Both the position numbers and the translations under genes were made by a program. DNA of 64,000 nt, taken from the NCBI GenBank assembly GCA_964577615.1, contig CAZNZW010000008.1, positions 54-64,053 of the forward strand, written 5' to 3'. The notes beneath the pieces were generated by a model, which had not been told where the DNA came from, did not search any database, and saw only the letters and a program-made list of their open reading frames with translations. Positions within the stretch are counted from its first letter, which is position 1; every line of letters starts with the position of its first letter. This DNA comes from an uncultured Desulfobacterales bacterium (lineage in GTDB: Bacteria > Desulfobacterota > Desulfobacteria > Desulfobacterales > QNYZ01). Shown here piece after piece: positions 13,689 to 28,896 of this stretch.

Positions 13689-14951
13689 TCACACGGTTTT
13701 GCGGCCAAACGCCCGGCCGGCCTTGCTGCGCTGCCGGGGCCGATAGGTATCGTTGGCGATTTCCCGCGTCATTACCCGCTTGAAGAGACGGAACATCTTC
13801 ATCTGCTGGGATTCGTCGGCATAGAAAGAATCCCAGGCATGATGAAACAGCTCCTGGAGGCGATCCGGCGGGATCTGTCTGGGCTGGTAGACCACCTGAT
13901 CAGCCGTATATTTTTTCCAGTCATAGGTTAAAATCCGTTTCTCTTTCTCCAGGTTTCGAAACGCGCGGGTGTGGGGAAAGGGCGTCAGGATGGTGAACTC
14001 CGCCAGATCCAGATCGATCTCGAGGAGAAAGTCGATCAGGCGCCGGATATCATCTTCGGTGTGTTCGTCAAGCCCCAGTAAAATCGTGCCTTCAACGGCA
14101 ATCCCGTGATCGTGGTAGCGCTGAATCCGGTCCCGGATCAGATCCGATGTATCAAAAACGGCCTGATAGACATACCAGGCGCCGGCCTGAGCGGCCAGAT
14201 CGAGCACCTCGGGATCGTCTTCGATGGGGTGGCTGCACCAGTTTTTTTTCAACGGGATCATTTCCCGGAAAAGGTCCTTTTCCCACTGGGTATTCTGGGC
14301 CAGGGAGTTATCGACGAGAAAAAGCCGGTTGTTGTCAATACCGGCCATCTCCGCCACCACCTTGTCGATGGGACGGGGGCGGAATCGGCGACCGCCCAGA
14401 TACGCCACCGCACACGGATAGCAGTTAAACCGGCACCCCCTTGAAGCGTGCACCAGATCGACCATCTGAATGCCCCGGTAATTGTACAGATCCCGGTTCA
14501 GGATATCCCGCCGGGCCGGGCCGATGAGCGCCACCGGCGGCTGGTCGTCCATGTAGTTGTATACTTTTTTCAATTGCCCGTTTTTGAAATCGGCCAGCAC
14601 CGTATCGATGTGGCCTTCGGCCTCGCCGATGAAAACCGCATCGGCATGCGCCGCCGTTTCTTCGGCGTGCAGCATGGTGGCAATCCCCCCGAAAATCACC
14701 GGGATGCCCCGGGCGCGAAAGGTATCGGCGATTTCCCAGCCCCGCTGGATCTGACTGGTGAGCATGGCCGATATGCCAACCATATCCGCCGACGCATCGA
14801 AATCGACCGTCTCCAGGTTTTCGTCGGTAAAGACAACCTCCACATCTTCGGGCAGAGCGGCGGCGAAAACCACCGGGCCGTGGGGGGGCAGATGAAACTC
14901 GGTCTGTCCGGTCAGCTTGGGCCATTTGGGATAGATCAGATATAATTTCAT
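13689..14951 (-). CDS. Cobalamin-binding radical SAM enzyme (class B-like)
   Basis: N-terminal B12-binding fold (VGISAM, VIFGGIATM, AVFIGEAEG); SRGCRFNCYPC. Confidence 0.88.
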   Translation of the reverse strand: MKLYLIYPKWPKLTGQTEFHLPPHGPVVFAAALPEDVEVVFTDENLETVDFDASADMVGISAMLTSQIQRGWEIADTFRARGIPVIFGGIATMLHAEETAAHADAVFIGEAEGHIDTVLADFKNGQLKKVYNYMDDQPPVALIGPARRDILNRDLYNYRGIQMVDLVHASRGCRFNCYPCAVAYLGGRRFRPRPIDKVVAEMAGIDNNRLFLVDNSLAQNTQWEKDLFREMIPLKKNWCSHPIEDDPEVLDLAAQAGAWYVYQAVFDTSDLIRDRIQRYHDHGIAVEGTILLGLDEHTEDDIRRLIDFLLEIDLDLAEFTILTPFPHTRAFRNLEKEKRILTYDWKKYTADQVVYQPRQIPPDRLQELFHHAWDSFYADESQQMKMFRLFKRVMTREIANDTYRPRQRSKAGRAFGRKTV

Positions 14952-15021
14952 ATAATTTCAGTATATTCCTCTTTGTTTTGATGCCGCGGGAAAAACACGC
15001 ATCCGGTCTTTCCGGGATTTT

Positions 15022-15705
15022 TTAATGGTTTATCGGCGTTGCCGACAGCAGTCGGAAATGCAGGGAGTATCCATGGGTCCCCGGCGCTGTCAGAGAAAAT
15101 GTGTCCGGGATAAAAAGTGTTCCGGCCGTGTTTTTCCGGCCCGTGGCCCCGGAGATGACCTCGCGGGTCATCCGGCCGGCATCGTCGTATTTCCGAATCC
15201 GCCAGGTGCCGTCCCGGGCCGTGGCCACTTCCACGACACCCCCCCGGGCATCGACAAACCGGCAGGCCGTGCCGGCCGTTGTCCGGCCTGTTTCCCGAAG
15301 GTTCCCCTGCGGCGGCAGAAAAATCAGCGCCACGTCGGCCAGGATACCGGTGGCCAGCGCCGGCCGGTCAAAGGGCGGGATCGCTTTCATCACCGCTGCT
15401 GTTCCGGCCAAACGGGCATCGAACAGGACGAGACCTTCCAGGGTCAGGAGGGTGCAGCGAATGGCGTTTCCGTTCGGATCCACATCGATCACCCCGTTGA
15501 AAAACGACGACCGCCCGGCCACATCCATCCGGATGGCATGGACAAACTGCCACCGCGCGCGGACAAACGGTCCCCGGCAGTCCGGGCCGGCGCCAGCATC
15601 CCCAAGCGGGGCCAGCGGGGCCATGCGCGTCGTTCCACCACAGGCCGTCAAAACGACAATCAGGAGAATCAGCCATCCCGGCGGCAGGCGGGTAAAACGG
15701 GTCAC
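15022..15705 (-). CDS. Lipoprotein, DUF3261-like (aryl-polyene-cluster type)
   Basis: Lipobox LTAC; LLTLEGLVLFD segment; sits directly downstream of the LolA-like gene. Confidence 0.6.
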   Translation of the reverse strand: MTRFTRLPPGWLILLIVVLTACGGTTRMAPLAPLGDAGAGPDCRGPFVRARWQFVHAIRMDVAGRSSFFNGVIDVDPNGNAIRCTLLTLEGLVLFDARLAGTAAVMKAIPPFDRPALATGILADVALIFLPPQGNLRETGRTTAGTACRFVDARGGVVEVATARDGTWRIRKYDDAGRMTREVISGATGRKNTAGTLFIPDTFSLTAPGTHGYSLHFRLLSATPINH

Positions 15706-16355
15706 GGGATCCTGGAAAAAACAGCCGGCGGCAGCGGCATGTTGGTGCGCGTATGCGTAAATGTCCAGACGGTATAGGCATCGGCACCTTCCACCACGGT
15801 AACGGTGTCGACCACGCCCGGTGCATCGGACAGTATCAGCTCGATCCGATTGATTATCCGGGACAGTGCCGCCTTTTTGGGCGTCAGGACCACCTTGTTG
15901 CTGCCGACGAGCGCCGCGTCAAAATCCGCGCTGTCGGAAAACCGGCCGGACATCCAGCCGCTGATCTGGCCCATCACCACCTGCATTCCCGCCATCTTGA
16001 CACCGGCATCGGCAATCCATCTGCCGTCCTGTTCCACAAACCGCCGGGTATTTCCCTGACGGGACACAAGAATGCTTTTTACGGGCGATACGTATTCCCA
16101 CCGTACCGATCCCGGCCGCTGAAAAAAAAACCGCCCCGTGGACGTCAGGGGCCGGGCCAGAAAGGGCAGATGTTTTTCCTGGACAAAATCCGCCTGGACC
16201 GTAACAATTTTTTCCGACGCCGCCCGGATCGCCTCCCAGCTGTCCGCCCATCCGGCGGTGGCCACCAGCAGCGCCGCAAGATTCAGGCCGATCAGCAGCC
16301 GGCCGGCGGTTGTCGCTATTTTTCCAGAAATTTTCACTGGGTCAGGCCATGCCAC
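15702..16355 (-). CDS. LolA-like outer-membrane lipoprotein/lipid carrier
   Basis: Signal peptide; ADFVQEKHL, STGRFFFQRPGSVRWEYVSP. Confidence 0.82.
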   Translation of the reverse strand: MAWPDPVKISGKIATTAGRLLIGLNLAALLVATAGWADSWEAIRAASEKIVTVQADFVQEKHLPFLARPLTSTGRFFFQRPGSVRWEYVSPVKSILVSRQGNTRRFVEQDGRWIADAGVKMAGMQVVMGQISGWMSGRFSDSADFDAALVGSNKVVLTPKKAALSRIINRIELILSDAPGVVDTVTVVEGADAYTVWTFTHTRTNMPLPPAVFSRIP

Positions 16356-17079
16356 CGTTCACGGAAATGACCTGCCCCGTAATATACGAGGCATCGGCCG
16401 AACAAAGAAAACGGACGACATTGGCAATCTCTTCCGGCTGGCCGATCCGGGCCATCGGAATCATGTTCTTCAGCCCGGTCAGGGCCACATCCCTGATCAT
16501 ATCCGTGTCGATGATACCGGGGGCCACCACGTTGACACGAATGCCGAGCCGGCCGACTTCGGTGGCCAGGGATCGGCTGGCGCCAATCAACCCCGCCTTG
16601 GCCGCCGAATAATTGGCCTGCCCGCGATTGCCGATCAGCCCGGCGATGGAAGAAATCGAGACCACGGCCCCTTTTTTGCGCCGCACCATCTTTTTCAGCA
16701 CCGGTTTGGTGACGTTGTAAAACCCGGTCAGGGTGGTATCGATCACCTGCCGCCAGTCTTTTTCCGGCATCATCATGAAAAGGCCATCGGCCGTGATGCC
16801 GGCGTTGTTCACCAGCACATCGATGCCTTTGTAGCGGGAAAAGAGATCGTCGAGCGCGGCTTTGGTCCGGCCGGCATCGGTGACATCAAAGGGCAGCAGT
16901 TCGCCCCGGCCGCCGTCTTTTTTGATCTGCGCCAGCGTTTCTTCGGCGGCCGTTGCGCTGGAGCGGTAATTGACCGCCACGTACCAGCCGGCCCGGGCCA
17001 GGGCAACGGCAATGGCCCGCCCGATTCCCTTGCCGGCGCCCGTGACGATGGCCACTTCGGTATCCGTATTTTTATCCAT
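16342..17079 (-). CDS. fabG: 3-oxoacyl-ACP reductase
   Basis: TGAGKGIG, NNAGIT, YSAAK, VAPGIIDTDM, GQVISVNGG; start at MDKN after GGAG (ORF track 17103). Confidence 0.9.
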   Translation of the reverse strand: MDKNTDTEVAIVTGAGKGIGRAIAVALARAGWYVAVNYRSSATAAEETLAQIKKDGGRGELLPFDVTDAGRTKAALDDLFSRYKGIDVLVNNAGITADGLFMMMPEKDWRQVIDTTLTGFYNVTKPVLKKMVRRKKGAVVSISSIAGLIGNRGQANYSAAKAGLIGASRSLATEVGRLGIRVNVVAPGIIDTDMIRDVALTGLKNMIPMARIGQPEEIANVVRFLCSADASYITGQVISVNGGMA

Positions 17080-17129
17080 GCTTATCTCCCCGATGTTTGA
17101 CATATTAACAGATTGTTCGCTGCCTGTTT

Positions 17130-17561
17130 TCAGTCTTCTTCCTGAACCACCTGGAGGGTGATTTCCGCAATCGACCGATCCCCGATCCGAACGTGCCCGG
17201 CAATTTCGGACAAGCCTTCAAAACTGAACGTCTGCCGGGTCGCTGTCACCATCCGGGCACCGAATGGCAGGGGATCCAGATGAAAAACCGCTTTTTTTAT
17301 CCCCACCAGCCATCCCCGGCCCCCGGTGGTATTGCCATGTTTTTTCAGTTCCCGCCAGCCGATGCAGATACCGGCCGTCTGGGCCACCAGCTCGATCAGA
17401 ACCACGGCCCCCACGCCGGACGCGGCGGACGCCGGCCAGCGTTCGGACACCACCGCTGCCGTAACGGCGCCCTGGTCGTCCACTGACACAATGTCGTCCA
17501 CCAGCTTCATCTGCTCCCGGTGCGGGATCAGATCCTCGATGGTAATCGTATTCGGATGCAT
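17130..17561 (-). CDS. Hotdog-fold 3-hydroxyacyl-ACP dehydratase (ApeP-like)
   Basis: LIPHREQMKLVD, IELVAQTAG, GWLVGIK. Confidence 0.8.
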   Translation of the reverse strand: MHPNTITIEDLIPHREQMKLVDDIVSVDDQGAVTAAVVSERWPASAASGVGAVVLIELVAQTAGICIGWRELKKHGNTTGGRGWLVGIKKAVFHLDPLPFGARMVTATRQTFSFEGLSEIAGHVRIGDRSIAEITLQVVQEED

Positions 17562-17730
17562 ACTGCCGCCGTAACCTGAAAAAACCGTTTGAAAGTTGGT
17601 GCCGGATCGCGTAATAAAAGCAGCGGGTCCGTCTGGCTATACCGTAAACCACCGCATCTTGTAAAGCCAGGTACCCGACCGGCCGGCGCATGCTGAAAAA
17701 ATCACCCAAACAGATAAGGAAAACACATAT

Positions 17731-17997
17731 ATGAACTCCCTGATCGAAGAGCTCCGGGTCAAAATCATCGACGCCCTCGACCTGATCGATATCGCCCCGG
17801 ACGATATTGACATTGAAGCCCCGCTCATCGGCGGCAAGCTGGGTATCGACTCCATTGATGTCCTCGAGCTGGTGATGATGACCGAAAGGGATTATGGCGT
17901 CACCATCGACAATCAGGAACTGGGCGCCCGGGTGTTTGCTTCCCTGAAATCGCTGGCCGAATACATCGACGCGCACCAGGCGGAAAAGGCCAGTTGA
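17731..17997 (+). CDS. Acyl carrier protein 1
   Basis: LGIDSIDVLEL phosphopantetheine motif; acidic 88 aa. Confidence 0.92.
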   Translation: MNSLIEELRVKIIDALDLIDIAPDDIDIEAPLIGGKLGIDSIDVLELVMMTERDYGVTIDNQELGARVFASLKSLAEYIDAHQAEKAS

Positions 17998-20168
17998 CCG
18001 GCCCGCGAATCTTCATTACCGGCATGGGCATCATCAGCCCGCTGGGGACTGGATGCCCGGCCACACTGGCCGCCCTGAACCGTGAAGAAAAAAATATCCG
18101 CCCGCTTTCTCTTTTTCCCATCCCCCATGGCACGCCCCTGCCAGTCGGCGAAGTCACCGAAAATATAGAATCTTCCGGCCTGCCCCGTACCCACCAGCTG
18201 GCCGAAATCGCCGCCCGGGAAGCGGTTGGCGACAACAACCGGCCGGTAGATGCCATCGTCATCGGCACGACCACCGGCGGCCTGCCCGACACGGAGGCCC
18301 GGCTCATGGCCGGCATTGATACGCCCGACGCCTACCGCTGCCACGCAGCAGGTTCGATCGCCGGCCATCTGGCAAAGCTTTTTGCATGCCACGGCCCTGT
18401 CCTGACCATTTCCACGGCCTGTTCATCCGGCGTCGCCGCCTTTGCGCTGGCCCGGGCCATTCTGCAAAACGGTCTGGCCACGCGCGTACTGGCCGGCGGC
18501 GCCGATGCCCTCTGCCGGCTGACCTATCATGGATTTAATGCCCTGCAGCTCATCGACCCGGCCGGCCCCAGACCCTTTGACCACCACCGGCGCGGCATGG
18601 CCGTCGGCGAAGGGGCGGCCATGCTCCTGCTTGAAGCCGCCCAGACGCCCCCGGCCGGCGCCGTCGCCGAATTTCTCGGCGCGGGTCTTTCCTGCGATGC
18701 ATACCACCCCACGGCCCCTCATCCGGAAGGCGCCGGCGCCCGGGCCGCCATGCAGGCCGCCCTGACCGATGCGGATGTGCGCCCGGACCAGATCGATTAC
18801 ATCCACCTTCACGGAACCGGCACCCCGGAAAACGACCGGGCCGAAGCCCGGGCGGTTGACCGTCTTTTTTCCAGTCACCCGCCAGCCGCGTCGTCGATCA
18901 AGGGCGCCACCGGTCACAGCCTGGCCGCCGCCGGTGCCGTGGGGGCCGTGATATCTGCCCTGGCCCTTGCACACCACCTGATTCCGGCAACCGCGGGCCT
19001 GGCCGAACCGGATCCGGATCTTCCCTTACGGCCGGTCTCCACCTTGATCCGCCGCCGGTACCGCCGAACCATGATCAACGCTTTCGGCTTTGGCGGCAAT
19101 AACGCTGTCGCCATCCTGGGGGCCGTTGGCAGCAGTGGCCCCCGCTGCCGGACCCACACTCCTTTCGAACGGTTTTCCGTGCGGGCCTGGGCCTGTCTGA
19201 CCGGCGCGGGCGATACGGCCGAAAGCACTGCCCGTTTCCGTCTGGGAAAATCCCTGGCCGGTCAATCTCCCGAAGCCGAGTTTGCCGCCGGCCTGCCCGC
19301 CGCCGCCCGCCGCCGGCTGAAGCGGCTGCCCCGCATGGTCCTCGCCCTCTGCGCGGCGGCTGCCCGCCAGTGGGCCGCGGGCGACGCCCCCCGATCGATT
19401 TTCCTCGGTACGGGCTGGGGGGCACTGACGGAAACCCACCGGTTTCTCACCCGGCTGTTCGAATCGGATGAACGCTTTGCCAGCCCCATCGATTTTTCCG
19501 GCTCCGTCCACAATGCCCCGGCGGGTCAGGCGGCCATCCATCTGAGCGCCACGGGCCCCAACCTGACTTTGACCGGGGGAGACGCTTCCTTCGAGCAGGC
19601 CCTCTTTGCCGCCGCCCGTCTGACCGACCCGGCAACCGGGCCGTGCATCGTCATCGGCGCCGACGAATACCATCCGGATTATTCTCCCCTTTTTGATGCA
19701 TCGTGCCGACAATCCGGCCGCCCGGCGGACGGGGGTGCCGCCTTCTGCCTGACACGGACCGCCGATTCCCGGCGCCCGACCCTGGACCTGCTGTTTTACG
19801 GCCGGGCTGAAAAACGCCCGCAAACGATTTCCGATCTGGCGGCCGCCGTCAACAGCGCCACGTCTCACGGGATCGGGTATGACGCCATTTTATACGGGGT
19901 TCCCATGTGTTATGATGAATCGGGCAGGCAACAGCTCGCCTTGCTTACCCGGTCCCTTCACCACCGCGTCCCCGGCATTGCCTACCGGCCGTATACCGGC
20001 GAATTTGCCACTGCCGCCGGCGTGGCCACGGCCCTGGCCCTGGATCTGGTCTCCCGGTCAGCCATTCCGGCCGCCCTGACCGGTGGCGATCCGCTGGCCC
20101 TGACCCATCACGGCCTCCTGGTTATCGGCCTGGGAGATGATGTATCTGCCATCATGGTGCGTGCCTGA
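17994..20168 (+). CDS. Fused beta-ketoacyl synthase / chain-length-factor protein
   Basis: KS half: STACSS, HLHGTGTPEND, KGATGHSL, NAFGFGGNN; second half SPIDFSGSVHNAPAG (aryl-polyene CLF-type) with no catalytic Cys; TTG start overlaps ACP stop. Confidence 0.85.
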   Translation: MTGPRIFITGMGIISPLGTGCPATLAALNREEKNIRPLSLFPIPHGTPLPVGEVTENIESSGLPRTHQLAEIAAREAVGDNNRPVDAIVIGTTTGGLPDTEARLMAGIDTPDAYRCHAAGSIAGHLAKLFACHGPVLTISTACSSGVAAFALARAILQNGLATRVLAGGADALCRLTYHGFNALQLIDPAGPRPFDHHRRGMAVGEGAAMLLLEAAQTPPAGAVAEFLGAGLSCDAYHPTAPHPEGAGARAAMQAALTDADVRPDQIDYIHLHGTGTPENDRAEARAVDRLFSSHPPAASSIKGATGHSLAAAGAVGAVISALALAHHLIPATAGLAEPDPDLPLRPVSTLIRRRYRRTMINAFGFGGNNAVAILGAVGSSGPRCRTHTPFERFSVRAWACLTGAGDTAESTARFRLGKSLAGQSPEAEFAAGLPAAARRRLKRLPRMVLALCAAAARQWAAGDAPRSIFLGTGWGALTETHRFLTRLFESDERFASPIDFSGSVHNAPAGQAAIHLSATGPNLTLTGGDASFEQALFAAARLTDPATGPCIVIGADEYHPDYSPLFDASCRQSGRPADGGAAFCLTRTADSRRPTLDLLFYGRAEKRPQTISDLAAAVNSATSHGIGYDAILYGVPMCYDESGRQQLALLTRSLHHRVPGIAYRPYTGEFATAAGVATALALDLVSRSAIPAALTGGDPLALTHHGLLVIGLGDDVSAIMVRA

Positions 20169-21515
20169 ATGAATGTCCTGCTCATCTCGGCCAACCCGCT
20201 GACAACGCCTTACCCGGTGTATCCGGTGGGCCTCGATTACGTGGCCGGCGCCATTCCCCCCCGGCACCGGGTCCACATTGCCGACATCAACCTGACCCGG
20301 CCCGATGCGCTCACCGCTCTCATCGATTCTTTCCATCCGGATGTCGTCGGTCTTTCCCTGCGTAACGTCGACAATACGGACATCGAAAATCCCCGCGCCT
20401 TTCTCGACGACCACCGCGGCCTTTGCCATCGCGTCCGACAGGCCACCCGGGCGCCGATCATTCTCGGCGGCAGCGGTTTTACCATTTTCCCCACGGAAAT
20501 GCTGGCGGCGCTGGATGCCGACTACGGCATTGCGGGTGAGGGGGAACGGCTGGCCCCGCTGCTCGACGCGCTTGAAAACGGCACCGATCCGGCCCGTCTG
20601 CCGGGGGTGATTGTCCGTGGCGGCACCGGCCACATTCCGCCTCCACTGGCCCGCATGATTCAACGCCCCGTCGTGGCCGACGGCGCCCACCGCCGCTTCT
20701 ATCTGGACCGGGGCGGCATGCTCAACCTCCAGACCAAACGGGGCTGCCCGTTCAAATGCGTCTATTGCACCTACCCGCACATCGAGGGCCGCCATATGCG
20801 CCGGATCCCCCCGGCCGATGTGGCGGCCACTGCCGTCCGGCTCGTCAATGCCGGCGCCAGATACCTTTTTATTACCGATTCGGCCTTTAACGCCGACTTT
20901 ACCCACAGCGCGGCGGTGGCCGAGGCCTTTGTTCACGCGGGAATCAAGGTCCCCTGGGGCGGTTTCTTCACGCCCATCGCGCCGCCTGCCGGATATTTCC
21001 GTCGACTGGCCCGGGCCGGTCTTACCCATGTGGAATTCGGCACGGAATCGCTGGCCGACGAGGTGCTCAAAGCGTACGGCAAGCCCTTTACCGCCGGCGA
21101 GGTGCTCGCCACCCACCGGCGGGCCGTGGCCGCCGGCCTGTATGTGGCCCATTACATGCTGCTCGGCGGCCCCGGTGAAACACCCGAAACCATCCAGCAG
21201 ACGCTGCGCACCATTGACAAGCTCGAGAAAACCGTCATATTTATCTTCTGCGGCATGCGGATTTACCCCCACACGGCCCTTTACGATCTCGCCTGCCGGC
21301 AGGGTCAGGTGGTGCCCGGTCGCAGTCTGCTTGCCCCGGTATTTTACCGCTCGCCGGCCATGGCGCCGGAAAGGATCCTTGCCCGGATCCATGCGGCGGC
21401 CGCCGGCCGCGGCAACTGGATTTTAAACGACGGCGGCGACGGTTCGGCCACTGTCCTGGATGCCATGTACCGGCGGGGGTTCAGCGGCCCCCTGTGGGAG
21501 TACCTGATCAAATGA
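20169..21515 (+). CDS. Lipid-biosynthesis cobalamin-binding radical SAM protein
   Basis: MNVLLISAN..PYPVYPVGL, VVGLSLRNVD, ILGGSGF, QTKRGCPFKCVYC; resembles the TIGR04072 family as recalled, not searched. Confidence 0.85.
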   Translation: MNVLLISANPLTTPYPVYPVGLDYVAGAIPPRHRVHIADINLTRPDALTALIDSFHPDVVGLSLRNVDNTDIENPRAFLDDHRGLCHRVRQATRAPIILGGSGFTIFPTEMLAALDADYGIAGEGERLAPLLDALENGTDPARLPGVIVRGGTGHIPPPLARMIQRPVVADGAHRRFYLDRGGMLNLQTKRGCPFKCVYCTYPHIEGRHMRRIPPADVAATAVRLVNAGARYLFITDSAFNADFTHSAAVAEAFVHAGIKVPWGGFFTPIAPPAGYFRRLARAGLTHVEFGTESLADEVLKAYGKPFTAGEVLATHRRAVAAGLYVAHYMLLGGPGETPETIQQTLRTIDKLEKTVIFIFCGMRIYPHTALYDLACRQGQVVPGRSLLAPVFYRSPAMAPERILARIHAAAAGRGNWILNDGGDGSATVLDAMYRRGFSGPLWEYLIK

Positions 21516-21940: not shown

Positions 21941-22204
21941 ATGACGGACGGAAAGACCCTTGAAACAATCATCCAGCGCGTGGCCGAAGTGATGATCGAC
22001 GAGCTGAAACTGGAAGATGTGACCCCGGAAACCTTTGACGCCGACGTGGACCTCATCGATGAGATCGGTATCGACAGCATGGATCTGGCGACCGTGGCAC
22101 TGGTCCTCCAGGACGAATACGCCATTCATATCGATGAGGACGATTACCCGAAACTCACCACTGTCCGCCTGATCGCCGAATATGTCCAGCAGCGGGTCCG
22201 GTAG
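21941..22204 (+). CDS. Acyl carrier protein 2
   Basis: IGIDSMDL motif; acidic 87 aa; RBS GGAG. Confidence 0.92.
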   Translation: MTDGKTLETIIQRVAEVMIDELKLEDVTPETFDADVDLIDEIGIDSMDLATVALVLQDEYAIHIDEDDYPKLTTVRLIAEYVQQRVR

Positions 22205-22208
22205 AGGC

Positions 22209-23321
22209 ATGACCATGGGCCATACCGTCTCCACAGCATCGCCCGGCCGGGAAACCACCGGACCGGATTCCCCCCGGGTCTATAAATTCGCCGATATCCT
22301 GTCCGACCCGGCCATCCGCCGCCGCTGGGAAAAGGTTCGCCGCTATTTCTTTCTGCGGGAATCCACCTACGACATGACCAATCGCTGCAATATCCGCTGT
22401 GACGGGTGCTATTTTTACGAAGGCGAGAAACAGTTCTCACAAAACAACACCGACCCCGAAGCCTGGCGCCGGCACATGATCGCGGAAAAGGAACGGGGCA
22501 TCACCTATGCCGTTCTCGCCGGGGCGGAACCCTCTCTGGTACCCGACCTCTGTCAGGCCTGCTTTGATGTGATTCCCAAGGGGGCCATCGCCACCAACGG
22601 CGTGCAGCCAATCCCGGCCCCGGTGGGATACCGGATTCACATCTCGGTCTGGGGCAGCGACGACACCAGCCAGCGGGTCCGGCATGCCCGGCATCTGCTC
22701 GAAAAACAGATGGAAAACTACCGGGACGATCCCCGGGTGGTCTTTGTTTACACATTTACCCGGGAAAATATCGATGAAAGCCGGGACGTCATCCGTACCC
22801 TGGTCGACAACGATTTCAAGGTAACGTTTAACGTTTTTTCCGCCCCGGTCGGATACCGGGGCCACCTGCGCCATACGCCGGAGACCTTGACCCGCATGCA
22901 GACCGTCATGACGGATCTGCTCGGCCAGTATCCGCGCCACGTGCTTTACGCGCATTACAATGCCGTTGCCCATACGCATCGTCTGGGTCTGCACGCCCTG
23001 TTCGGCTGTTCATACCCCCGCCGGAACCCGTCCAGGGCCATCGGTCTGGGGCGCTCTTTCCGCCAGTACCGGTCCGATCTGACCTGGGACCGCCAGGCGG
23101 CCTGCTGCGTGCCGGATACCGACTGCGATGACTGCCGGCATTACGCCGCCGGGAGCGCCGTCGTCACCGCCCGGCTGTTTCGCCATGCCGCCGATCCCGA
23201 CACTTTCAAAGCCTGGCTTGATTATGTTGATACCTACCTGTCGGTCTGGGTAGTGGACTATCCCAAGGGAAATAACCTCTGCCACCAGCCGGTGTCGCCG
23301 CCCGGCCATCATCAGGCCTGA
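22209..23321 (+). CDS. Radical SAM protein A with C-terminal Cys cluster (unknown function)
   Basis: CNIRCDGC, AGAEPS, ATNG; C-terminal ACCVPDTDCDDC; start after AGAGG (ORF track 22182). Confidence 0.85.
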   Translation: MTMGHTVSTASPGRETTGPDSPRVYKFADILSDPAIRRRWEKVRRYFFLRESTYDMTNRCNIRCDGCYFYEGEKQFSQNNTDPEAWRRHMIAEKERGITYAVLAGAEPSLVPDLCQACFDVIPKGAIATNGVQPIPAPVGYRIHISVWGSDDTSQRVRHARHLLEKQMENYRDDPRVVFVYTFTRENIDESRDVIRTLVDNDFKVTFNVFSAPVGYRGHLRHTPETLTRMQTVMTDLLGQYPRHVLYAHYNAVAHTHRLGLHALFGCSYPRRNPSRAIGLGRSFRQYRSDLTWDRQAACCVPDTDCDDCRHYAAGSAVVTARLFRHAADPDTFKAWLDYVDTYLSVWVVDYPKGNNLCHQPVSPPGHHQA

Positions 23322-23353
23322 TGTCCCCGGCCTGATTATCTGGAGTGTTTTGA

Positions 23354-24352
23354 ATGAAAACAATCAGTTCTTTATTAAATGAAGAATGGTATAACCGCTA
23401 CAAAAAGATATCCAAGCTCAATATCCGCAGTTCCATCTACGACGTCAACAACCGCTGCAACCTGCGCTGCAAAGGGTGTTTCTTTTTCTCATCCAACGAG
23501 GACAAAGCGGCCGACGAAGAAACCGATCTTGGCAAATGGGAAGCGTTTATCGACAATGAGAAAGCCCGCGGCGTCAATCTGGCCATCCTGATCGGTGGCG
23601 AACCGAGCCTGAATCTGGACCGGATTGACGCTTTTTACCGCCGGATGCCGACGTTCTGCGCCACCAACGGCCTGATCAAAGTCCCCCGCGACCGGTTCCC
23701 CGACCTGATGGTGGGAATTTCGCTCTGGGGCGATGAAGAAGACGAAAAAAAGCTGCGCGGCAAAGACACCTTCGCGGTTTCCAGCAAAAATTACGCCGGA
23801 GACGCCTATACGTATTACCTGTATACCATCACGCCCCGGCAGATCGGCAAAACCGAGCAGATCGTCCGCAAGATCCGGGACATCGGTGTCAAAGTGCACA
23901 TGCAGCTGCTGTCCAACGATGAAGACGTGGACGGCTTTTCATGGCAGCCCGAAGAGCTGGTGGATATCCGGGCGGAAATGGACGCCATGCTCGACCGGTA
24001 CGCCGACACGGTCATTTCATCCAAATATTATCATAAGATCATTACGACGGGAGAGATGCTCGGCCGCCGGTTTGGCTGGCTGGAATGCCCGTCAGTGACC
24101 GAATCGTTCGACACCCGTGACCCGCAGCCCAAACGGCTGATCCATTTTATCCGCTGGGCCTCGGATTTAAAGACGACCCACCGCTGCTGTACATCGGAAA
24201 CCCGGGACTGCAGTACGTGTAAGGACGGTGCGGCGCACATGAGCTGGGTCATGGTCAACAAGCGCGCCCACATGCGCTCTGCTGAAGATTTTCAGAACTG
24301 GATCGAAGTGTACGAGATGTTTGCCAAACTCTACCGGTTTATTCCCTGGTAA
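23354..24352 (+). CDS. Radical SAM protein B, paralog of A
   Basis: CNLRCKGC, GGEPS, ATNG; C-terminal RCCTSETRDCSTC. Confidence 0.87.
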   Translation: MKTISSLLNEEWYNRYKKISKLNIRSSIYDVNNRCNLRCKGCFFFSSNEDKAADEETDLGKWEAFIDNEKARGVNLAILIGGEPSLNLDRIDAFYRRMPTFCATNGLIKVPRDRFPDLMVGISLWGDEEDEKKLRGKDTFAVSSKNYAGDAYTYYLYTITPRQIGKTEQIVRKIRDIGVKVHMQLLSNDEDVDGFSWQPEELVDIRAEMDAMLDRYADTVISSKYYHKIITTGEMLGRRFGWLECPSVTESFDTRDPQPKRLIHFIRWASDLKTTHRCCTSETRDCSTCKDGAAHMSWVMVNKRAHMRSAEDFQNWIEVYEMFAKLYRFIPW

Positions 24353-24394
24353 TGCCGCCGGCGCCGCGGTTTTCCCGGCGCCCGGAAAAAAATC

Positions 24395-25645
24395 ATGACC
24401 CCCAAAACCGCCGTTATCGCCGGATTCGATGCCGTCTCTCCCCTGGGTACGACGCTGCCCGTTCAATGGAAGCGCGCGCTTGCCGGGCAGAGCGGCATCG
24501 GCCCCCTGACCCGCTTTGAATACGACGCCCGTTTTCCGGTACGGATCGCCGGCCAGGTGCCCCCTTTTGACCCGTCGCCATACCCGTTTCTTTCCCCGCG
24601 GGCCATGGCGCACTGGTCCTCTCCCATTTTTCCCCATGCCCTGCTTACCGTCCACCGGGCCCTGGGCAGCAGCGGCATTGAGATCGATGCGGCCCTGGCG
24701 CCCCGGGTGGCGGTGACGTTCAGCTCGGCCGTGGGCGGGCAGGATGCCGTTCTGGCCGCCGACCGGAAAATGATTGCACACGGCAAGCTGCCCCACCCGT
24801 TCACCAACCCCAATGCCTGCATCAACATGGTGGGCGGCAAGGTATCGATGCTGACCGGCGCCACCGGCCCGATCGTTTCGACCATTACCGCCTGTGCCAC
24901 GGGCCTGACCTCGATGATCACCGGCGCCATGCTGATCGGACAGGGGATGGCCGACGTCGCCATCTGCGGGGCCGTGGATTTCGCTCTGGTCGAACCGATT
25001 GTCGCCGGTTTTTTTACGATGAACGGCGCCTTTAACCCCAGACGCGGCCAGGAAAACGAGCCGCCCCACCGGGCCAGCCGGCCCTTTTCCGTCGACCGCC
25101 GGGGATTTGTCATCTCCGAGGGAGCGGCGGCGGTGATTCTCTGCAGCCATGACTTTGCCAGGGCCCACGGCCTGGATGCAAAGATCGCCCTGGCCGGCTA
25201 TGCCATGACGTCCGATGCCCGCCATTTTGTGGCGCCCAATCTGCCCACGGTGAGCCGCTGTATCCGGGAGAGCCTGACCGCCGCCCGCATTGATGCCGGC
25301 CAGATCGACGCGGTCAATGCCCATGCGGCCTCGACCCGGGTGGGCGACAGGGTCGAATACGATGCGCTGGCCGCAAATTTCGGCGACCGGATACCGCCGG
25401 TTACGGCCAACAAATCGCTGATCGGCCACGCCATGGGTGCGTCCAGCGCCATTGAATCGGTATTCGCCTTTCTGGGCATGGAAAACAACCGTCTCCTGCC
25501 GACCCGCAACTATTCCGCAGACCCGGAGATGGGTCTCGACTGCGCCGCCGAAGGTCCCCGTCGACTTGACCAGGAATTTGTGTTAAAAAATGCGTTCGGC
25601 TTTGGCGGCTGCAATTCATGCGCCGTCTTTCAGAAAATCGCCTGA
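24395..25645 (+). CDS. FabF-like beta-ketoacyl-ACP synthase
   Basis: ITACATG (Cys), NAHAAST (His), KSLIGHAMGA (His), NAFGFGG. Confidence 0.88.
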   Translation: MTPKTAVIAGFDAVSPLGTTLPVQWKRALAGQSGIGPLTRFEYDARFPVRIAGQVPPFDPSPYPFLSPRAMAHWSSPIFPHALLTVHRALGSSGIEIDAALAPRVAVTFSSAVGGQDAVLAADRKMIAHGKLPHPFTNPNACINMVGGKVSMLTGATGPIVSTITACATGLTSMITGAMLIGQGMADVAICGAVDFALVEPIVAGFFTMNGAFNPRRGQENEPPHRASRPFSVDRRGFVISEGAAAVILCSHDFARAHGLDAKIALAGYAMTSDARHFVAPNLPTVSRCIRESLTAARIDAGQIDAVNAHAASTRVGDRVEYDALAANFGDRIPPVTANKSLIGHAMGASSAIESVFAFLGMENNRLLPTRNYSADPEMGLDCAAEGPRRLDQEFVLKNAFGFGGCNSCAVFQKIA

Positions 25646-25689
25646 GGCCGTTTCTTCGTTCCGGCATCGGCCGGGAAAACGGATGATAT

Positions 25690-26955
25690 ATGAAAGCACC
25701 TTTAAACAGACGCGTCACCGTTGTCGGATATGCGGCGGCCACGGCGCTGGGGAAAACCTTTGCGACCACCTGGGGCCGATCGGTCGCCGGGGCCGCCGGG
25801 TTTCGCAGAATCACCCGCTGCGAGGTACAGACCCGGAGCAATGTCGTGGGCGAAATCCCCGGCTGGGATCCGCTGGCCTATGATTTTATCGACCGCAAGG
25901 AAGCGTACAACTGGAATGCGGATTATGTCATTCTGACTGTGGCGACCTGCCGGCAGGCCCTGCACGATGCCGGCCTCGACATCACCCCGGAAACCGGGCC
26001 CCGCACCGCCTGCCTGATCGGTTCGGCCTTAAACGGCGCCGACGCGTTCCGGGTGGCCATGGACAATTATGTCAACCGGGGGCCTTTCAAAGTCAGCCCC
26101 TACCTCCTGCCCAACCTCTGCGCCAACGTCCCCGCCGGCAAGGCCGGGATGGCCCTGGGATTTACCGGCCCGATTTTTTCTCCCCAGGGCGCCTGCGCCT
26201 CGGGGAATCACGCCATCGCCCTGGGCGCCCGCATGATCCGGGACGGCGACTGCGATTTCGCTCTGGTCGGCGGCGTGGACACCTGCCTGATACCGGAAAT
26301 CGTCCAGGGATTTGCCAATATGCTGGCCACGATCAGCATCGGGCCCGGCGACCGGGCCTTTGACGATCCGGCCCAGGCCTGCCGCCCCTTTTCCGTCGAC
26401 CGCAGGGGGATCGTGCTGGCCGAAGGATGCGGCGTTCTGGTCCTGGCCGCCGAAGAGGCCGCCGCCGCCTGGGGCCTGACCCCCCGGGCCGAGGTTCTCG
26501 GCGTCGGGTGGACTTCCGACGCCTACCACTTTACCCTGCCCAACCGGGAAACGATTATCCGGGCGATTGCCGCGGCCATCGACGATGCGGATCTGTCCCC
26601 GGACGATATCGATTACATCAACGCCCACGGCACATCGACCCGGAAGGGAGACCTGACGGAAATCGAATGTCTGCGCACTATCTTCGGGCCACGGCTGCCG
26701 CAGATCCCCGTTTCCGCCAACAAATCCCAGCTCGGCCATTCCCTGGGGGCCTCGGCCGCCATCGAAGCCGCCCTGGCCATTGAAGGCATGCGGCAGCAGG
26801 TCATTTTGCCCACGATCAACCATGTGCCCGACCCGGCCCTGGCCGACGTCGACGTGGTGCCCGGTACGGCCCGCCGGCAGGCCCACGAATTCGTCCTGTC
26901 AAACGCCTTCGGATTCGGCGGGACCAACTGCTGCCTGGTTTTAAGAGGAATGTGA
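25690..26955 (+). CDS. FabF-like beta-ketoacyl-ACP synthase
   Basis: GACASG (Cys), NAHGTST (His), KSQLGHSLGA (His), NAFGFGG. Confidence 0.9.
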   Translation: MKAPLNRRVTVVGYAAATALGKTFATTWGRSVAGAAGFRRITRCEVQTRSNVVGEIPGWDPLAYDFIDRKEAYNWNADYVILTVATCRQALHDAGLDITPETGPRTACLIGSALNGADAFRVAMDNYVNRGPFKVSPYLLPNLCANVPAGKAGMALGFTGPIFSPQGACASGNHAIALGARMIRDGDCDFALVGGVDTCLIPEIVQGFANMLATISIGPGDRAFDDPAQACRPFSVDRRGIVLAEGCGVLVLAAEEAAAAWGLTPRAEVLGVGWTSDAYHFTLPNRETIIRAIAAAIDDADLSPDDIDYINAHGTSTRKGDLTEIECLRTIFGPRLPQIPVSANKSQLGHSLGASAAIEAALAIEGMRQQVILPTINHVPDPALADVDVVPGTARRQAHEFVLSNAFGFGGTNCCLVLRGM

Positions 26956-26956
26956 T

Positions 26957-27436
26957 GTGAAACCGAAACCGTTTCAACCGGAAAAAAAAGCGGCCGATTC
27001 GCCCTACGTCCGGGACCTCACCGACAATCGCTGGTGGCATCGCTGCAGCCACCGGATTCTCTACGCCGACACGGACCGCTCCCAGGTGGTTTACCACGCC
27101 AATTACCTGCGTTACTTCGAGCAGGGCCGGGCCACTCTCATGCGGGACAGCGGTTACCCCTACCGCGAGGTGGAAGACAGCGGGTTTATTTACCCGATCA
27201 TTGCCATGGGGGTGGATTATTTTACACCGCTTTATTACGACGACCCGATCTACATCCACACCCGGCCGGCGGAAATGGAACGGGTGCGCCTGCAGTTTGA
27301 TTACCTGATCACCCACCAAGACACCGGCGCCGTTGTCTGCAAGGGCTTTACCCGTCACTGTGCCACCAACACCGCCGGAACGCCGGTGGGCATTGATGCA
27401 AAAACGACGCACCTATGGCTGACTTTTCCCCGCTGA
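26957..27436 (+). CDS. Acyl-CoA/ACP thioesterase (YbgC/4HBT family)
   Basis: YADTDRSQVVYHANYLRYFEQGR. Confidence 0.88.
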   Translation: MKPKPFQPEKKAADSPYVRDLTDNRWWHRCSHRILYADTDRSQVVYHANYLRYFEQGRATLMRDSGYPYREVEDSGFIYPIIAMGVDYFTPLYYDDPIYIHTRPAEMERVRLQFDYLITHQDTGAVVCKGFTRHCATNTAGTPVGIDAKTTHLWLTFPR

Positions 27437-28260
27437 CCGTTACGGTCGATTTCCCGTTGCCCGCCTACCTGCGGGACCATCGCCTCGGCGGCCGGTCCGT
27501 CCTGCCGGCGGTTGACGCCCTCCGGATACTGGCAGACACCGCCGGCAAATCGATGCCGCCAGCAAATATCCGTCACATGCGCGACATCGCGCTGATCCGG
27601 CTGCTGTCCATCCCCCCTGATGATTCGCGCTGCCGGCTGTTTGTCACGCTTGCCCCGGCCCACGGACCGGACGGCGTGGCCGCGTCGCTGTGCACCCGGT
27701 TCCGGTCGAAATCCGGCCGGATTACCCGTCTGAAGACGCATGTATCGGTGATCTTCGGCGGTCCGCCGCCGCCGGCGGCACCGCTCCCGGATCGGCCGCC
27801 CAGGACCGGGTTCGACGTTGACGCCGCCCGGCTCTACCGGGAGCTGGTGCCCTTCGGGCCGGGGTTCCAGAGCCTGACCGGCACGGTGACGCTCTCACCG
27901 GAAGGCGCCACCGGCACGGCGATGACGCCCCCGAAAACCGTTTCCATCGGTGGCCCGACCGGATCGCCGTTTCCGCTCGATGCGGCTTTTCATGCCGCCT
28001 GCGCCTGGGGCCAGCGGTTTCATCACAAAATCGTCTATCCAATGGCCATCACCCGGCGCGTTATCACAACCCCCACCGCCGTTGACGGGCGCTATGCGGT
28101 CACGGTCAGACCGGTGGCCGCCGGAAACGACACATTGACCTTTGATATCTGGATTACGTCTGCCGCCGGCATCGTGTGCGAAACCGTCCGGGGCGTCCGC
28201 ATGGCGCCCATCGATGGAATCTCCACCGATCCGCCGGCCTGGATATCCGCACCGTGCTGA
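27415..28260 (+). CDS. Stand-alone PKS-type (double-hotdog) dehydratase
   Basis: YLRDHRLGGRSVLP (HxxxGxxxxP), YRELVPFGPGFQSL, PFPLDAAFHAA (catalytic Asp position). Confidence 0.75.
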   Translation: MADFSPLTVTVDFPLPAYLRDHRLGGRSVLPAVDALRILADTAGKSMPPANIRHMRDIALIRLLSIPPDDSRCRLFVTLAPAHGPDGVAASLCTRFRSKSGRITRLKTHVSVIFGGPPPPAAPLPDRPPRTGFDVDAARLYRELVPFGPGFQSLTGTVTLSPEGATGTAMTPPKTVSIGGPTGSPFPLDAAFHAACAWGQRFHHKIVYPMAITRRVITTPTAVDGRYAVTVRPVAAGNDTLTFDIWITSAAGIVCETVRGVRMAPIDGISTDPPAWISAPC

Positions 28261-28320
28261 ATCAAAGTGACGAACGGGTACCCGGCGTCAAGCCGGATTT
28301 AAAATAGAAGAGGAGCCGCG

Positions 28321-28896
28321 ATGACCCTGCGTTTTCTGCTGCTGTTGACCACGGCCTATCTCGCCGGATCGATCAATATTTCCATCGGCCTTTTCCGGCT
28401 GCTGGGGAAAAAAGACCCGCGCGACGCCTTCAGCGGCAACCCCGGTGTCACCAACGTCTACCGCCTGGCCGGACCGGCATGGGCCCTGGGGGTATTGCTG
28501 CTCGAAATGGGAAAAGCCGTTTTTATTGCCCTTCTCGCGCACCGTCTCCTGTCCCCCGGCGTCGTCCCCTGGATCGGCAGCGGCCTGATTATCGGCAACC
28601 GCTTCCCCTGCTTTCACCGATTCAGCGGCGGCAAGGGGGTGGCCAATTTTCTCGGGTTTGCCGCCCCGCTTGCCCCGCTCGCCGCCGGGCTCGGCATGCT
28701 GCTCTGGCTGGCCGCATTTACCCTGAGTCGTCAGCCGTTTATCGGGTCCTTCGCCCTGATCGCCGCTCTGGGCATCGGTATGGCCGCCGCCTGCGGAATC
28801 GGCATCCTCCCTTTATCAGGCACCCTCGTCACTGTCGCCCTGATCGTCCACGCCCATAAAAAAAATATCGCCGGCATTCGCGCCAGCGCTGGATAA
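28321..28896 (+). CDS. plsY: Glycerol-3-phosphate acyltransferase, PlsY family
   Basis: AYLAGS, SGNPGVTNVYR, FSGGKGVA, HKKNI; multi-pass membrane; RBS GAGGAG. Confidence 0.85.
   Translation: MTLRFLLLLTTAYLAGSINISIGLFRLLGKKDPRDAFSGNPGVTNVYRLAGPAWALGVLLLEMGKAVFIALLAHRLLSPGVVPWIGSGLIIGNRFPCFHRFSGGKGVANFLGFAAPLAPLAAGLGMLLWLAAFTLSRQPFIGSFALIAALGIGMAAACGIGILPLSGTLVTVALIVHAHKKNIAGIRASAG

Follow-up and report, generated by a model that had tools for sequence, protein, structure and literature searches.

An aryl-polyene-like, probable lipid gene cluster with four radical-SAM enzymes in an uncultured Desulfobacterales bacterium, a member of a widespread family in anaerobes

The aryl polyene (APE) clusters of Escherichia coli CFT073 (apeA-R) and Xenorhabdus doucetiae, together with the related flexirubin clusters, are among the closest known systems to the locus described here. 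In the finished Xenorhabdus lipid, a galactosamine-phosphate-glycerol head group bears the aryl polyene together with a conjugated C26:5 acyl chain (bioRxiv 10.1101/2020.12.19.423268). The APE enzyme set is thus known to make polyene acyl chains on a glycerol-phosphate anchor. Clusters that combine type II fatty acid synthase (FAS) genes with genes for radical S-adenosylmethionine (SAM) enzymes were reported in 2009 in Desulfotalea, Geobacter and Pelobacter (PMC2649909), and antiSMASH-based surveys have found 'ladderane' biosynthetic gene clusters, expressed in situ, in Desulfobacterota and further phyla outside the anammox bacteria (PMC9902471). A 2026 review treats ladderane biosynthesis as unsolved, names no product for such clusters and lists only ladderanes and jawsamycin for radical-SAM tailoring of ketoacyl (non-isoprenoid) lipids (PMC13459092). 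Here we describe a 15-kb cluster of 17 genes at positions 13689-28896 of a 64,000-nucleotide stretch of DNA (contig CAZNZW010000008.1, hereafter the window) from an uncultured Desulfobacterales bacterium. With moderate confidence we read it as a dedicated type II FAS/highly reducing polyketide synthase (PKS) lipid pathway that follows the APE lipid plan and adds four radical-SAM enzymes to it. Clusters of this family are widespread in anaerobes, and their product is uncharacterised; most likely it is an unsaturated acyl chain, tailored by radical-SAM enzymes, that is attached to glycerol phosphate and delivered to the outer membrane. Its chemistry is inferred.

Open reading frame (ORF) listing, translation and Pfam/NCBIfam scans placed the genes in two divergent arms, and all 17 genes that an earlier note on this DNA had listed were recovered in the arrangement and at the positions it gave. 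They encode two acyl carrier proteins (ACPs), a ketosynthase (KS) fused to a chain-length factor (CLF), two further intact KS, FabG, three types of dehydratase, a thioesterase, four radical-SAM enzymes (two with B12 domains), a LolA-like protein, a lipoprotein and a PlsY-like protein, as follows.

13689-14951, minus strand: g01, B12-binding radical-SAM protein of 420 residues at the end of the minus arm (Pfam B12-binding and Radical_SAM).
15022-15705, minus strand: g02, lipoprotein, DUF3261/LolB-like (ApeN-like), with a lipobox LTAC in the translation.
15702-16355, minus strand: g03, LolA-like periplasmic carrier of lipid or lipoprotein (ApeL-like; Pfam LolA, 52.5 bits).
16342-17103, minus strand: g04, 3-oxoacyl-ACP reductase, FabG/ApeQ/FlxB-like (NCBIfam FabG NF004200, 299.9 bits, cutoff 273).
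17130-17561, minus strand: g05, ApeP-like single-hotdog dehydratase subunit (Pfam ApeP-like, 22.1 bits, below the gathering threshold (GA) of 27).
17562-17730: divergent intergenic region of about 170 bp, presumed from its position between the arms to be the shared promoter region of both.
17731-17997, plus strand: g06, ACP1 with the motif GIDSID, ApeE-like (NCBIfam PRK09184, 69.7 bits, cutoff 70); the overlapping minus-strand ORF is not the gene.
17994-20168, plus strand: g07, fused ketosynthase and chain-length factor of 724 residues (Pfam ketoacyl-synt N/C and Ketoacyl-synt_2).
20169-21515, plus strand: g08, B12-binding radical-SAM protein, named 'lipid biosynthesis B12-binding/radical SAM protein' (TIGR04072).
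21494-21904, plus strand: g09, ApeI/FabA-like dehydratase, first gene of the invariant core (Pfam FabA, 35.4 bits; ApeI-like, 32.6 bits).
21941-22204, plus strand: g10, ACP2 with the motif GIDSMD (Pfam PP-binding).
22182-23321, plus strand: g11, radical-SAM protein with a C-terminal CCx6Cx2C motif (Pfam Radical_SAM, 35.2 bits).
23354-24352, plus strand: g12, radical-SAM protein of 332 residues, paralog of g11 and most conserved protein of the cluster.
24395-25645, plus strand: g13 (KSa), FabF-like ketosynthase (Pfam KS N/C; FabF TIGR03150, 303 bits, below cutoff).
25690-26955, plus strand: g14 (KSb), FabF-like ketosynthase (FabF TIGR03150, 360 bits, below cutoff).
26957-27436, plus strand: g15, YbgC/4HBT-type thioesterase, ApeK-like (TIGR00051, 85 bits, cutoff 68.7).
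27415-28260, plus strand: g16, PKS-type double-hotdog dehydratase (Pfam PS-DH, 45.4 bits).
28321-28896, plus strand: g17, PlsY-like glycerol-3-phosphate acyltransferase paralog (Pfam G3P_acyltransf, PF02660, 110.9 bits).

Translation probably begins at ATG 21512 for g09, in an ATGA overlap with the stop codon of g08, and at ATG 22209 for g11, 5 nt past the ACP2 stop. The plus arm is gapless, its genes showing ATGA-type overlaps all the way from ACP1 to g09 and on into the core, and the abutting and overlapping genes leave no room for additional functions inside the cluster. A sigma-70 scan found no sigma-70-like site in the intergenic region, so that its promoter role is a presumption, and Rfam gave no riboswitch or other RNA family in the window.

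Relatives were collected with a profile of g11/g12 run against one genome per GTDB species. Among the 600 stretches listed, 591 encode relatives, and the conservation counts use the best 80 loci (L001-L080) of these at least 591 related stretches; gene presence was scored by tblastn of all 17 proteins, each denominator being the number of loci with room for the gene. Eight genes, g09-g10-g11-g12-g13-g14-g15-g16 (dehydratase, ACP, two radical-SAM enzymes, two KS, thioesterase and dehydratase), form an invariant core that was present in 49-68 of 52-68 loci (about 94-100%), and the order from g09 to g14 holds in 62-68 related loci as well as in the window. ACP2 was found in 67 of 67 loci with a median ortholog identity of 72%, and g11 in 68 of 68. 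The accessory set g02-g08 occurred in 60-75% of loci, an ortholog of g01 with about 74% identity in at least 25, and the PlsY-like gene g17 followed the cluster in 21 of 52 (40%); the KS-CLF fusion was kept in 37 loci. Identities were 65-80% for core proteins as against 34-48% for the KS-CLF, LolA-like and lipoprotein sequences. The genes that flank the cluster in the window (amidase, ferredoxin-like, aminotransferase and TetR) were never conserved at related loci, which fixes the cluster boundaries, and an independent public gene call of a locus with 90% identity in g12 (L086) showed the identical 17-gene layout among other neighbours. The cluster is real and under selection, and no chance grouping of genes.

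Conservation extends to the catalytic residues. The three Cys/His/His triads of the KS, the four CxxxCxxC motifs of the radical-SAM enzymes, both ACP serines (including the DS motif of ACP1), the extra CCx6Cx2C of g11/g12 (in g11 all seven cysteines), the His and Asp of the PS-DH enzyme g16 (HxxxGxxxxP and DxxxH), the catalytic Asp of the thioesterase (YxDTD), the His of GHFP in g09 and the Glu of E..AQ in g05 were all 100% conserved in orthologs. The most constrained protein, g12, had an ortholog in every one of the best 80 loci at 77-84% identity, and all 80 orthologs have exactly 332 codons, with a third-codon-position identity of 0.4-0.55 and a GC content at third codon positions (GC3) of 0.37-0.95. 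Protein identity and length that persist despite near-saturated third positions indicate a long divergence under very strong purifying selection; judged from these sequences, the pattern does not look like recent transfer or contamination. A representative search recovered the g12 family as a single cluster at 50% identity, its next relatives being at most 36% identical. The constraint is tighter than we would expect for typical housekeeping enzymes and appears unusually strong for a tailoring enzyme, which points to a tight protein-protein or substrate geometry.

Carriers comprise Desulfobacterales, Desulfobulbales (Desulfogranum japonicum, Desulfocapsa), Desulfosudis oleivorans, Syntrophaceae, Hydrosulfovibrio ferrireducens and nine metagenome-assembled genomes of Spirochaetota/Leptospirales, and g12 is encoded by Desulfosarcina widdelii too. 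Desulfobulbales and Desulfocapsaceae with the core are represented by L047, L048 and L076. The Spirochaetota/Leptospirales genomes (L035, L042, L045, L057, L058, L064, L066, L079 and L032) have the core, and often the full cluster, with identities as in Desulfobacterales. Their codon composition matches each host (GC3 0.37-0.86), which suggests long residence and argues against binning contamination.

Related loci also carry genes that the window copy does not: an MMPL pump that is in many cases joined to a methyltransferase (20 loci), a lysophospholipid acyltransferase of the LPLAT type (5 loci), a NodB-type deacetylase, alone or with a methyltransferase (22 loci), and a flavoprotein resembling phytoene desaturase (4 loci). 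Fusion proteins without a counterpart in the window were seen at L045 6205-7680, L070 6492-7988 and L047 16047-19091. One kind joins a NodB-type polysaccharide deacetylase to a SAM methyltransferase and adjoins g08; the other joins an MMPL transporter to a methyltransferase. For both kinds, Kuenenia cluster II has the corresponding domains as separate genes (Kuste3351, Kuste3347). A lipase-like/laminin-G protein lies between the core KS genes at L048 12477-17312, with an RHS-repeat protein upstream of the core at the same locus, and a Na+/H+ antiporter is inserted between the two core KS genes at 12838-14433 of L035 and L042. Such foreign inserts indicate that KSa and KSb need not be translationally coupled.

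The proposal of an aryl-polyene-like toolkit is supported by a comparison of the predicted proteins with the ape gene table of E. coli (PMC8253772), in which 11 of the 17 genes map onto APE functions: g02 corresponds to ApeN, g03 to ApeL, g04 to ApeQ, g05 to ApeP, g06 to ApeE, g07 to ApeO plus ApeC, g09 to ApeI, g10 to ApeF, one of g13/g14 to ApeR and g15 to ApeK, and g17 is a functional analogue of ApeD, which is predicted to be a glycerol-3-phosphate acyltransferase. Like the APE clusters, the present one has two ACPs, pairs a KS with a CLF and includes an additional KS, a FabG-type ketoreductase, a putative ApeI/ApeP-type dehydratase pair, a 4HBT thioesterase, a LolA-like carrier, a lipoprotein that may be of the DUF3261/LolB-like kind and a glycerol-phosphate acyltransferase step; an enoyl reductase is absent from both. 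The earlier note had named this toolkit, and the matches to ApeO (6qsp) and ApeI (6qsr), the Pfam ApeI/ApeP-like domains, the LolA2_flexi/FlxB-like pair and the weakly DUF3261-like lipoprotein support it, with scores on the flexirubin/APE models that stay under the cutoffs (LolA2_flexi 100/125, FlxB 304/340, ApeP-like 22/27).

The differences from the APE clusters are equally distinct. KS and CLF, the ApeO/ApeC-type pair, are present in g07 but fused in one protein, and the cluster goes beyond the APE set with its four radical-SAM enzymes (two of them B12-dependent), a PKS-type double-hotdog dehydratase, a second FabF-like KS and the PlsY-like acyltransferase. Missing here are the aryl-starter-activating ApeH, the methyltransferase ApeB, the LPLAT enzyme ApeD, the glycosyltransferase ApeJ, ApeG and the pump ApeM. 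No AMP-binding gene that could serve as an ApeH-type acyl-ACP synthetase for an aromatic (4-hydroxybenzoate) starter lies within 13689-28896; the nearest to the cluster, at 40225-41925, is part of an Ole-like set. Neither ApeD nor ApeJ is in the cluster, which has the PlsY-like gene at the operon end instead, and LPLAT occurs in the five relatives mentioned above. Within the cluster, ORFs and Pfam showed no enoyl reductase, AMP-ligase, glycosyltransferase or MMPL exporter; the earlier statement to this effect stands for this locus, whereas the lack of MMPL, which extends to the whole 64-kb window, is specific to this copy, as at least 20 related loci have such a gene just downstream. Of the envelope transport set, then, the LolA-like protein is present, the lipoprotein is weakly DUF3261-like and the ApeM-type MMPL pump is found in relatives only. 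The hosts of this cluster are strict anaerobes, unlike those of the APE clusters.

Three KS that keep their catalytic triads, and a CLF, had been proposed for the cluster, and this was borne out. In g07, Pfam places the ketoacyl-synt N and C domains at residues 89-335 and Ketoacyl-synt_2 at 431-568; the KS triad is intact, and in the CLF domain GGD(A/Y)SF replaces the Cys motif. Its best matches in the Protein Data Bank (PDB) were 9s5h_B, an anammox KS, Iga11 (6kxd, E 8.5e-54) and ApeO (6qsp, E 5e-51). The Cys/His/His triad is likewise intact in g13 and in g14, whose best PDB matches were canonical FabF enzymes. The reductase g04 scored 303.6 bits on the FlxB model, under the cutoff of 340. 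Among the dehydratases, g09 lies above the Pfam ApeI-like GA (32.6 versus 28.5 bits) with PDB matches to 3esi and to ApeI 6qsr (E 3e-9). The motifs of g09 and the sub-GA g05 are complementary, in that g09 supplies the His and g05, in which the GHFP His is missing, the Glu; this fits an ApeI:ApeP-type heterodimer spanning both halves of the cluster.

Among the radical-SAM enzymes, g08 is a member of TIGR04072 (rSAM_ladder_B12; 380.9 bits against a cutoff of 360, over model positions 1-443). Its closest solved structure is the Trp C-methyltransferase TsrM (6wte, E 3.5e-33), and its nearest families are BzaD and the Trp-methyltransferases. The other B12 enzyme, g01, is no member of this family (42.6 bits), and aligns over its full length with the B12-radical-SAM protein of anammox Cluster I (31% identity, E 4e-56). 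The paralogs g11 and g12 are 28% identical to each other, each with CxxxCxxC and CCx6Cx2C, the latter as one auxiliary-cluster motif; their family has no characterised member and gave only weak superfamily matches in NCBIfam. The AlphaFold2 model of g12 (pLDDT 92.4) has generic SPASM/twitch-type radical-SAM enzymes as Foldseek neighbours, with TM scores of about 0.5: CteB, DesII, SkfB, anSME, SpeY, viperin and GDGT-MAS. We considered an assignment of g12 by structure and rejected it, given neighbours so generic at this TM score.

A search with a profile of the distant relatives found no anammox orthologs of g11/g12, and instead found a subfamily of Streptomyces, Burkholderia and Tistrella in non-FAS contexts. 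A metagenome scan with a divergent g11-like protein yielded one contig (L087, 42% GC), on which a lone g11-like radical-SAM gene (8001-9255, 40% identity) overlaps a downstream ACP gene within a polysaccharide locus that includes GDP-mannose dehydratase, sulfotransferase and WcbI genes. A g11 relative joined to an ACP outside fatty-acid clusters supports a carrier-protein-bound substrate for the g11/g12 family. In Burkholderia ambifaria (L081, 8375-11718), a distant g11/g12 relative stands beside a PaaA/PaaC-like protein and a thioesterase; opposite is a LuxI/RsaM-linked cluster that encodes an AMP-ligase, a PhyH-family oxygenase and two carrier proteins. To judge from its genes, this locus appears to be a different, uncharacterised pathway.

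The candidate trafficking proteins are more weakly matched. On the NCBIfam model LolA2_flexi, g03 reached 100 bits, under the cutoff of 125. The lipoprotein g02 has no Pfam match in this copy, and 12 of 34 orthologs weakly match DUF3261 (best E 1e-4); DUF3261 marks ApeN, the LolB-like protein of the APE cluster (PMC8253772). The terminal g17 falls below the PlsY equivalog TIGR00023 (83.4 against a cutoff of 137.2 bits) and keeps SGNxGxTNxxR, GGKG and a C-terminal His. The 21 cluster-linked copies, from Desulfobacterales to Spirochaetota, have the signature GN(R/H)(F/Y)PCFH..GGKGVANYLG, and the position of His92 of Aquifex PlsY is Asn in 20 of them and Thr in one. By this signature they form a distinct conserved subfamily that appears dedicated to the cluster. 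We considered g17 as a mere housekeeping PlsY neighbour and rejected this as the leading view on the sub-cutoff score and the signature shared across phyla. A distinct subfamily that follows the cluster in two fifths of loci makes the previously suggested link to glycerolipid assembly plausible.

Taken as a lipid pathway on the APE plan, the cluster would work as follows. The KS-CLF protein g07 would prime by decarboxylating malonyl-ACP1, as the anammox KS/CLF-like heterodimer does, and would extend the chain with g04 and the g09(His)/g05(Glu) dehydratase pair. Because the cluster is without an enoyl reductase, the chain would stay unsaturated, as a conjugated polyene, unless a housekeeping reductase steps in. 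The B12 radical-SAM enzymes g08 and g01 would modify a carrier-bound carbon, most probably by C-methylation, given that the nearest structure to g08 is the methyltransferase TsrM. The twitch-like paralogs g11/g12, encoded directly after ACP2, may carry out a second radical step on the ACP2-bound chain, which could be C-C bond formation or cyclisation, or dehydrogenation. The FabF-like KS g13/g14 and the PS-DH enzyme g16 would extend the tailored chain further, and the thioesterase g15 would release or proofread it. The PlsY-like g17 would then put the chain on a glycerol-phosphate anchor, where other family members have LPLAT instead, and the LolA-like g03 and LolB/DUF3261-like g02 would carry the lipid to the outer membrane, many relatives adding an MMPL pump.

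Several observations weigh against this pathway. We know of no odd lipid reported from standard fatty-acid analyses of cultured carriers, and literature searches found no named product for TIGR04072, for such clusters in sulfate reducers or for cobalamin-radical-SAM/ACP systems. The chain may not be a polyene, as a housekeeping FabI could reduce it. Roughly a quarter to a third of loci have the core but no KS-CLF/LolA arm within 10 kb of it, so that the halves may be separable, and the PlsY-like gene is missing after the cluster from all but 40% of loci. PlsY uses acyl-phosphate, and the cluster has no PlsX or kinase; in g17, moreover, Asn stands in place of one motif-3 His (His92 in Aquifex PlsY). 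An MMPL exporter is lacking in this copy. No specific function for g11, g12 or g01 emerged from Foldseek and HMM libraries, and B12-radical-SAM enzymes also catalyse non-methylating reactions.

A more specific version of the lipid pathway, which we put forward tentatively and regard as rather doubtful in full, is an envelope lipid of a structurally new class, made by anaerobes that include the sulfate-reducing bacteria. Its polyene-derived chain would undergo radical C-C bond formation, giving a carbocycle or cross-link, and B12-dependent C-methylation, with g01/g07 and g11/g12 performing the kinds of step of their anammox relatives.

It is unlikely that the cluster instead makes a specialised metabolite that is released and not placed in the membrane, for instance a signal, a modified polyene carboxylic acid or a compound of antibiotic type, with the PlsY-like gene a mere neighbour. 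The thioesterase belongs to the invariant core and the PlsY-like gene occurs at only 21 of 52 loci, and the related Iga11 (ishigamide) and AmcF (cispentacin) enzymes make soluble products. A soluble product is nonetheless difficult to reconcile with the LolA-like and LolB/DUF3261-like genes here, with MMPL and LPLAT in relatives and with a dedicated PlsY-like subfamily beside the cluster across phyla; the very strong conservation and the wide, vertical-looking spread also fit a cell-envelope component better than a variable secondary metabolite.

We give a low probability to two independent adjacent systems with unrelated products, an APE-like arm (g01-g08) and a radical-SAM/FAS core (g09-g16). 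The core stands without the other arm within 10 kb in L025, L035, L042, L049 and L047, and the two sets differ in identity as described above. Against this, the arms are found together at about 60-75% of the loci with room, in Desulfobacterales, Desulfobulbales and Spirochaetota alike, the plus arm runs unbroken into the core, the core alone has no ketoreductase, and the His of g09 and the Glu of g05 would complete one dehydratase across both halves.

Quite improbable, too, is a plain polyunsaturated fatty acid or hydrocarbon made anaerobically (Rattray 2009), in which the non-B12 radical-SAM enzymes would be oxygen-independent desaturases or dehydrogenases and no cyclisation or methylation would take place. 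Desulfotalea, a carrier of a similar cluster, contains C31:8 and C31:9 hydrocarbons (PMC2649909). The structural neighbours of g12 include radical-SAM dehydrogenases of the twitch/SPASM type (anSME, DesII and SpeY, for example), and some relatives have phytoene-desaturase-like genes. However, 3.6 kb downstream of the cluster the window has a set (32496-41925) headed by a PfaC-like multidomain protein of 1897 residues with KS, CLF-like and FabA-type dehydratase domains and continued by OleA-like (38186-39226), OleB-like alpha/beta-hydrolase (39220-40125) and OleC-like AMP-ligase (40225-41925) genes, with no OleD-like gene next to it. By its domains this looks like a pfa/ole-type gene set for polyunsaturated hydrocarbons. 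Such sets are a known route to C31 polyene hydrocarbons, and one could explain those of Desulfotalea without the radical-SAM cluster. In addition, ketoreductase and dehydratase without enoyl reductase already give double bonds, so that desaturases are unneeded, and the two B12-radical-SAM enzymes would be left without a role.

A ladderane or other concatenated-cyclobutane lipid, as proposed for the anammox clusters, is barely plausible: g08 passes the rSAM_ladder_B12 family, g01 and the KS of g07 are the closest relatives in the window of the Cluster I B12-radical-SAM protein and amxFabF2, and the composition resembles Kuenenia cluster II (PMC4790861), but no ladderanes were found in Desulfotalea (PMC2649909), anammox bacteria are their only known source (PMC13459092), the identities to anammox proteins are low (23-34%), the Cluster I B12-radical-SAM protein itself lies outside TIGR04072 (88 bits), no ACP matches amxACP by BLAST, the dehydratases are ApeI/ApeP-like and not amxFabZ-like, this copy has no phytoene-desaturase-like gene, and no anammox gene has been tied experimentally to ladderane formation.

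The kind of cluster has been noticed before and is functionally uncharacterised; it is not a categorically new system. The earlier description of it as undescribed was overstated, given the 2009 report (PMC2649909), the existing NCBIfam model and the 'ladderane' clusters in Desulfobacterota surveys (PMC9902471). What is new here, on sequence comparison, is the near one-to-one map onto the APE set, the conserved KS-CLF fusion, the dedicated PlsY-like subfamily, the eight-gene invariant core, the extreme conservation of g12 and the recognition of g01, and not of the TIGR04072 enzyme g08, as the homolog of the Cluster I B12-radical-SAM protein. At the left end of the window, outside the cluster, a choline-sulfatase-like gene and a radical-SAM/SPASM protein resembling an anaerobic sulfatase maturase (580-3305) have a GC content of about 44%, against about 60% for most of the window, and may have been acquired as an island.

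The cluster is present in at least 80 species-level genomes, with many more relatives; most carriers belong to Desulfobacterota, which are dominant in anoxic marine sediments. Radical-SAM tailoring of ketoacyl lipids is almost unexplored. Once identified, the lipid could serve as a new biomarker, and it would help to explain how the outer membrane is built or protected in strict anaerobes. Outside the anammox bacteria, several of the cluster's proteins are the closest relatives of candidate ladderane enzymes, and the cultured carriers Hydrosulfovibrio ferrireducens, Desulfosarcina widdelii, Desulfosudis oleivorans and Desulfogranum japonicum would be far easier to work with than anammox enrichments. 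If the proposal of a new envelope-lipid class is true, cultivable Desulfobacterota would be a tractable model for the unsolved ladderane pathway. Genome-mining calls of 'ladderane' in non-anammox bacteria (PMC9902471) may include APE-like clusters of the present kind.

The comparison with anammox Cluster I (kuste3603-3608), the putative ladderane cluster, used locus L085, which encodes amxACP, amxFabZ, amxFabF2/amxFabFmut, a phytoene-desaturase-like protein and a B12-radical-SAM protein. The link to anammox fatty-acid islands drawn in the earlier note was supported by the TIGR04072 membership of g08 and by the identities of g01 (31%) and the g07 KS (34%) to Cluster I proteins. The anammox KS/CLF-like heterodimer decarboxylates malonyl-ACP, while the function of the anammox cluster is unproven (bioRxiv 10.64898/2026.05.19.726425). 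Shared by both clusters are a KS with a catalytically dead partner, a B12-radical-SAM protein, a dedicated ACP and a hotdog dehydratase. The 34% identity of the g07 KS is to amxFabF2, and its CLF domain is 26% identical to amxFabFmut over 150 residues, which makes the two homologous and distant. The PDB match 9s5h_B fits amxFabF2, all organism-named proteins among its top 120 relatives being from Brocadiales; the true amxFabF2 clade, at least 65% identical, was found only in Brocadiales. The closest relative in the window of the Cluster I B12-radical-SAM protein (87.9 bits on TIGR04072, hence no member) is g01, not g08. Neither ACP1 nor ACP2 matched amxACP by BLAST at E 1e-3, g09 matched amxFabZ over only 70 residues and g05 not at all, in keeping with ApeI/ApeP-like dehydratases here and a FabZ-like one there. 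The phytoene-desaturase-like gene of Cluster I is absent here, and the genes of the four relatives that have one are 22% identical to it; Cluster I in turn is without the g11/g12 pair, thioesterase, PS-DH, LolA-like and PlsY-like genes. The methyltransferase domain of related loci gave no match to the anammox methyltransferase 8HD2 in a PDB search. A separate observation on L085 is that amxFabZ (9536-9991) scored 98.6 bits, under the cutoff of 140, on the NCBIfam model of AmcE, which acts in cispentacin biosynthesis as the ring-forming 'cyclizing decarboxylase'; although sub-threshold, the similarity may be of interest for work on ladderane ring formation.

The highly reducing PKS systems of ishigamide (Iga11/Iga12) and cispentacin (AmcF/AmcG) share with the present cluster a KS with a non-catalytic partner, a discrete ACP and the lack of an enoyl reductase, and the g07 KS scored 189 bits on the AmcF model, under the equivalog cutoff of 325. 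In contrast to our cluster, they have no radical-SAM enzymes and no lipid-trafficking genes, and their products are soluble.

Kuenenia cluster II (kuste3335-3352), with the published composition FabZ-ACP-FabG, two radical-SAM enzymes and FabF proteins (PMC4790861), and the syntenic cluster of Desulfotalea psychrophila (DP1853/DP1855; PMC2649909) have FabZ, ACP, FabG, two non-B12 radical-SAM genes and several FabF paralogs. Compared with these clusters, the present copy is without acyl-CoA ligase, methyltransferases, glycosyltransferase and membrane transporter, and has LolA-like and LolB-like genes in addition. The placement of two adjacent non-B12 radical-SAM genes between the ACP/dehydratase genes and the FabF paralogs matches the arrangement of Kuenenia cluster II, as judged by the published gene list (PMC4790861), and the four extras of the Kuenenia/Desulfotalea clusters, a SAM methyltransferase, a polysaccharide-deacetylase-like protein, a phytoene-desaturase-like protein and an MMP-like membrane protein, are all found in relatives of the cluster described here.

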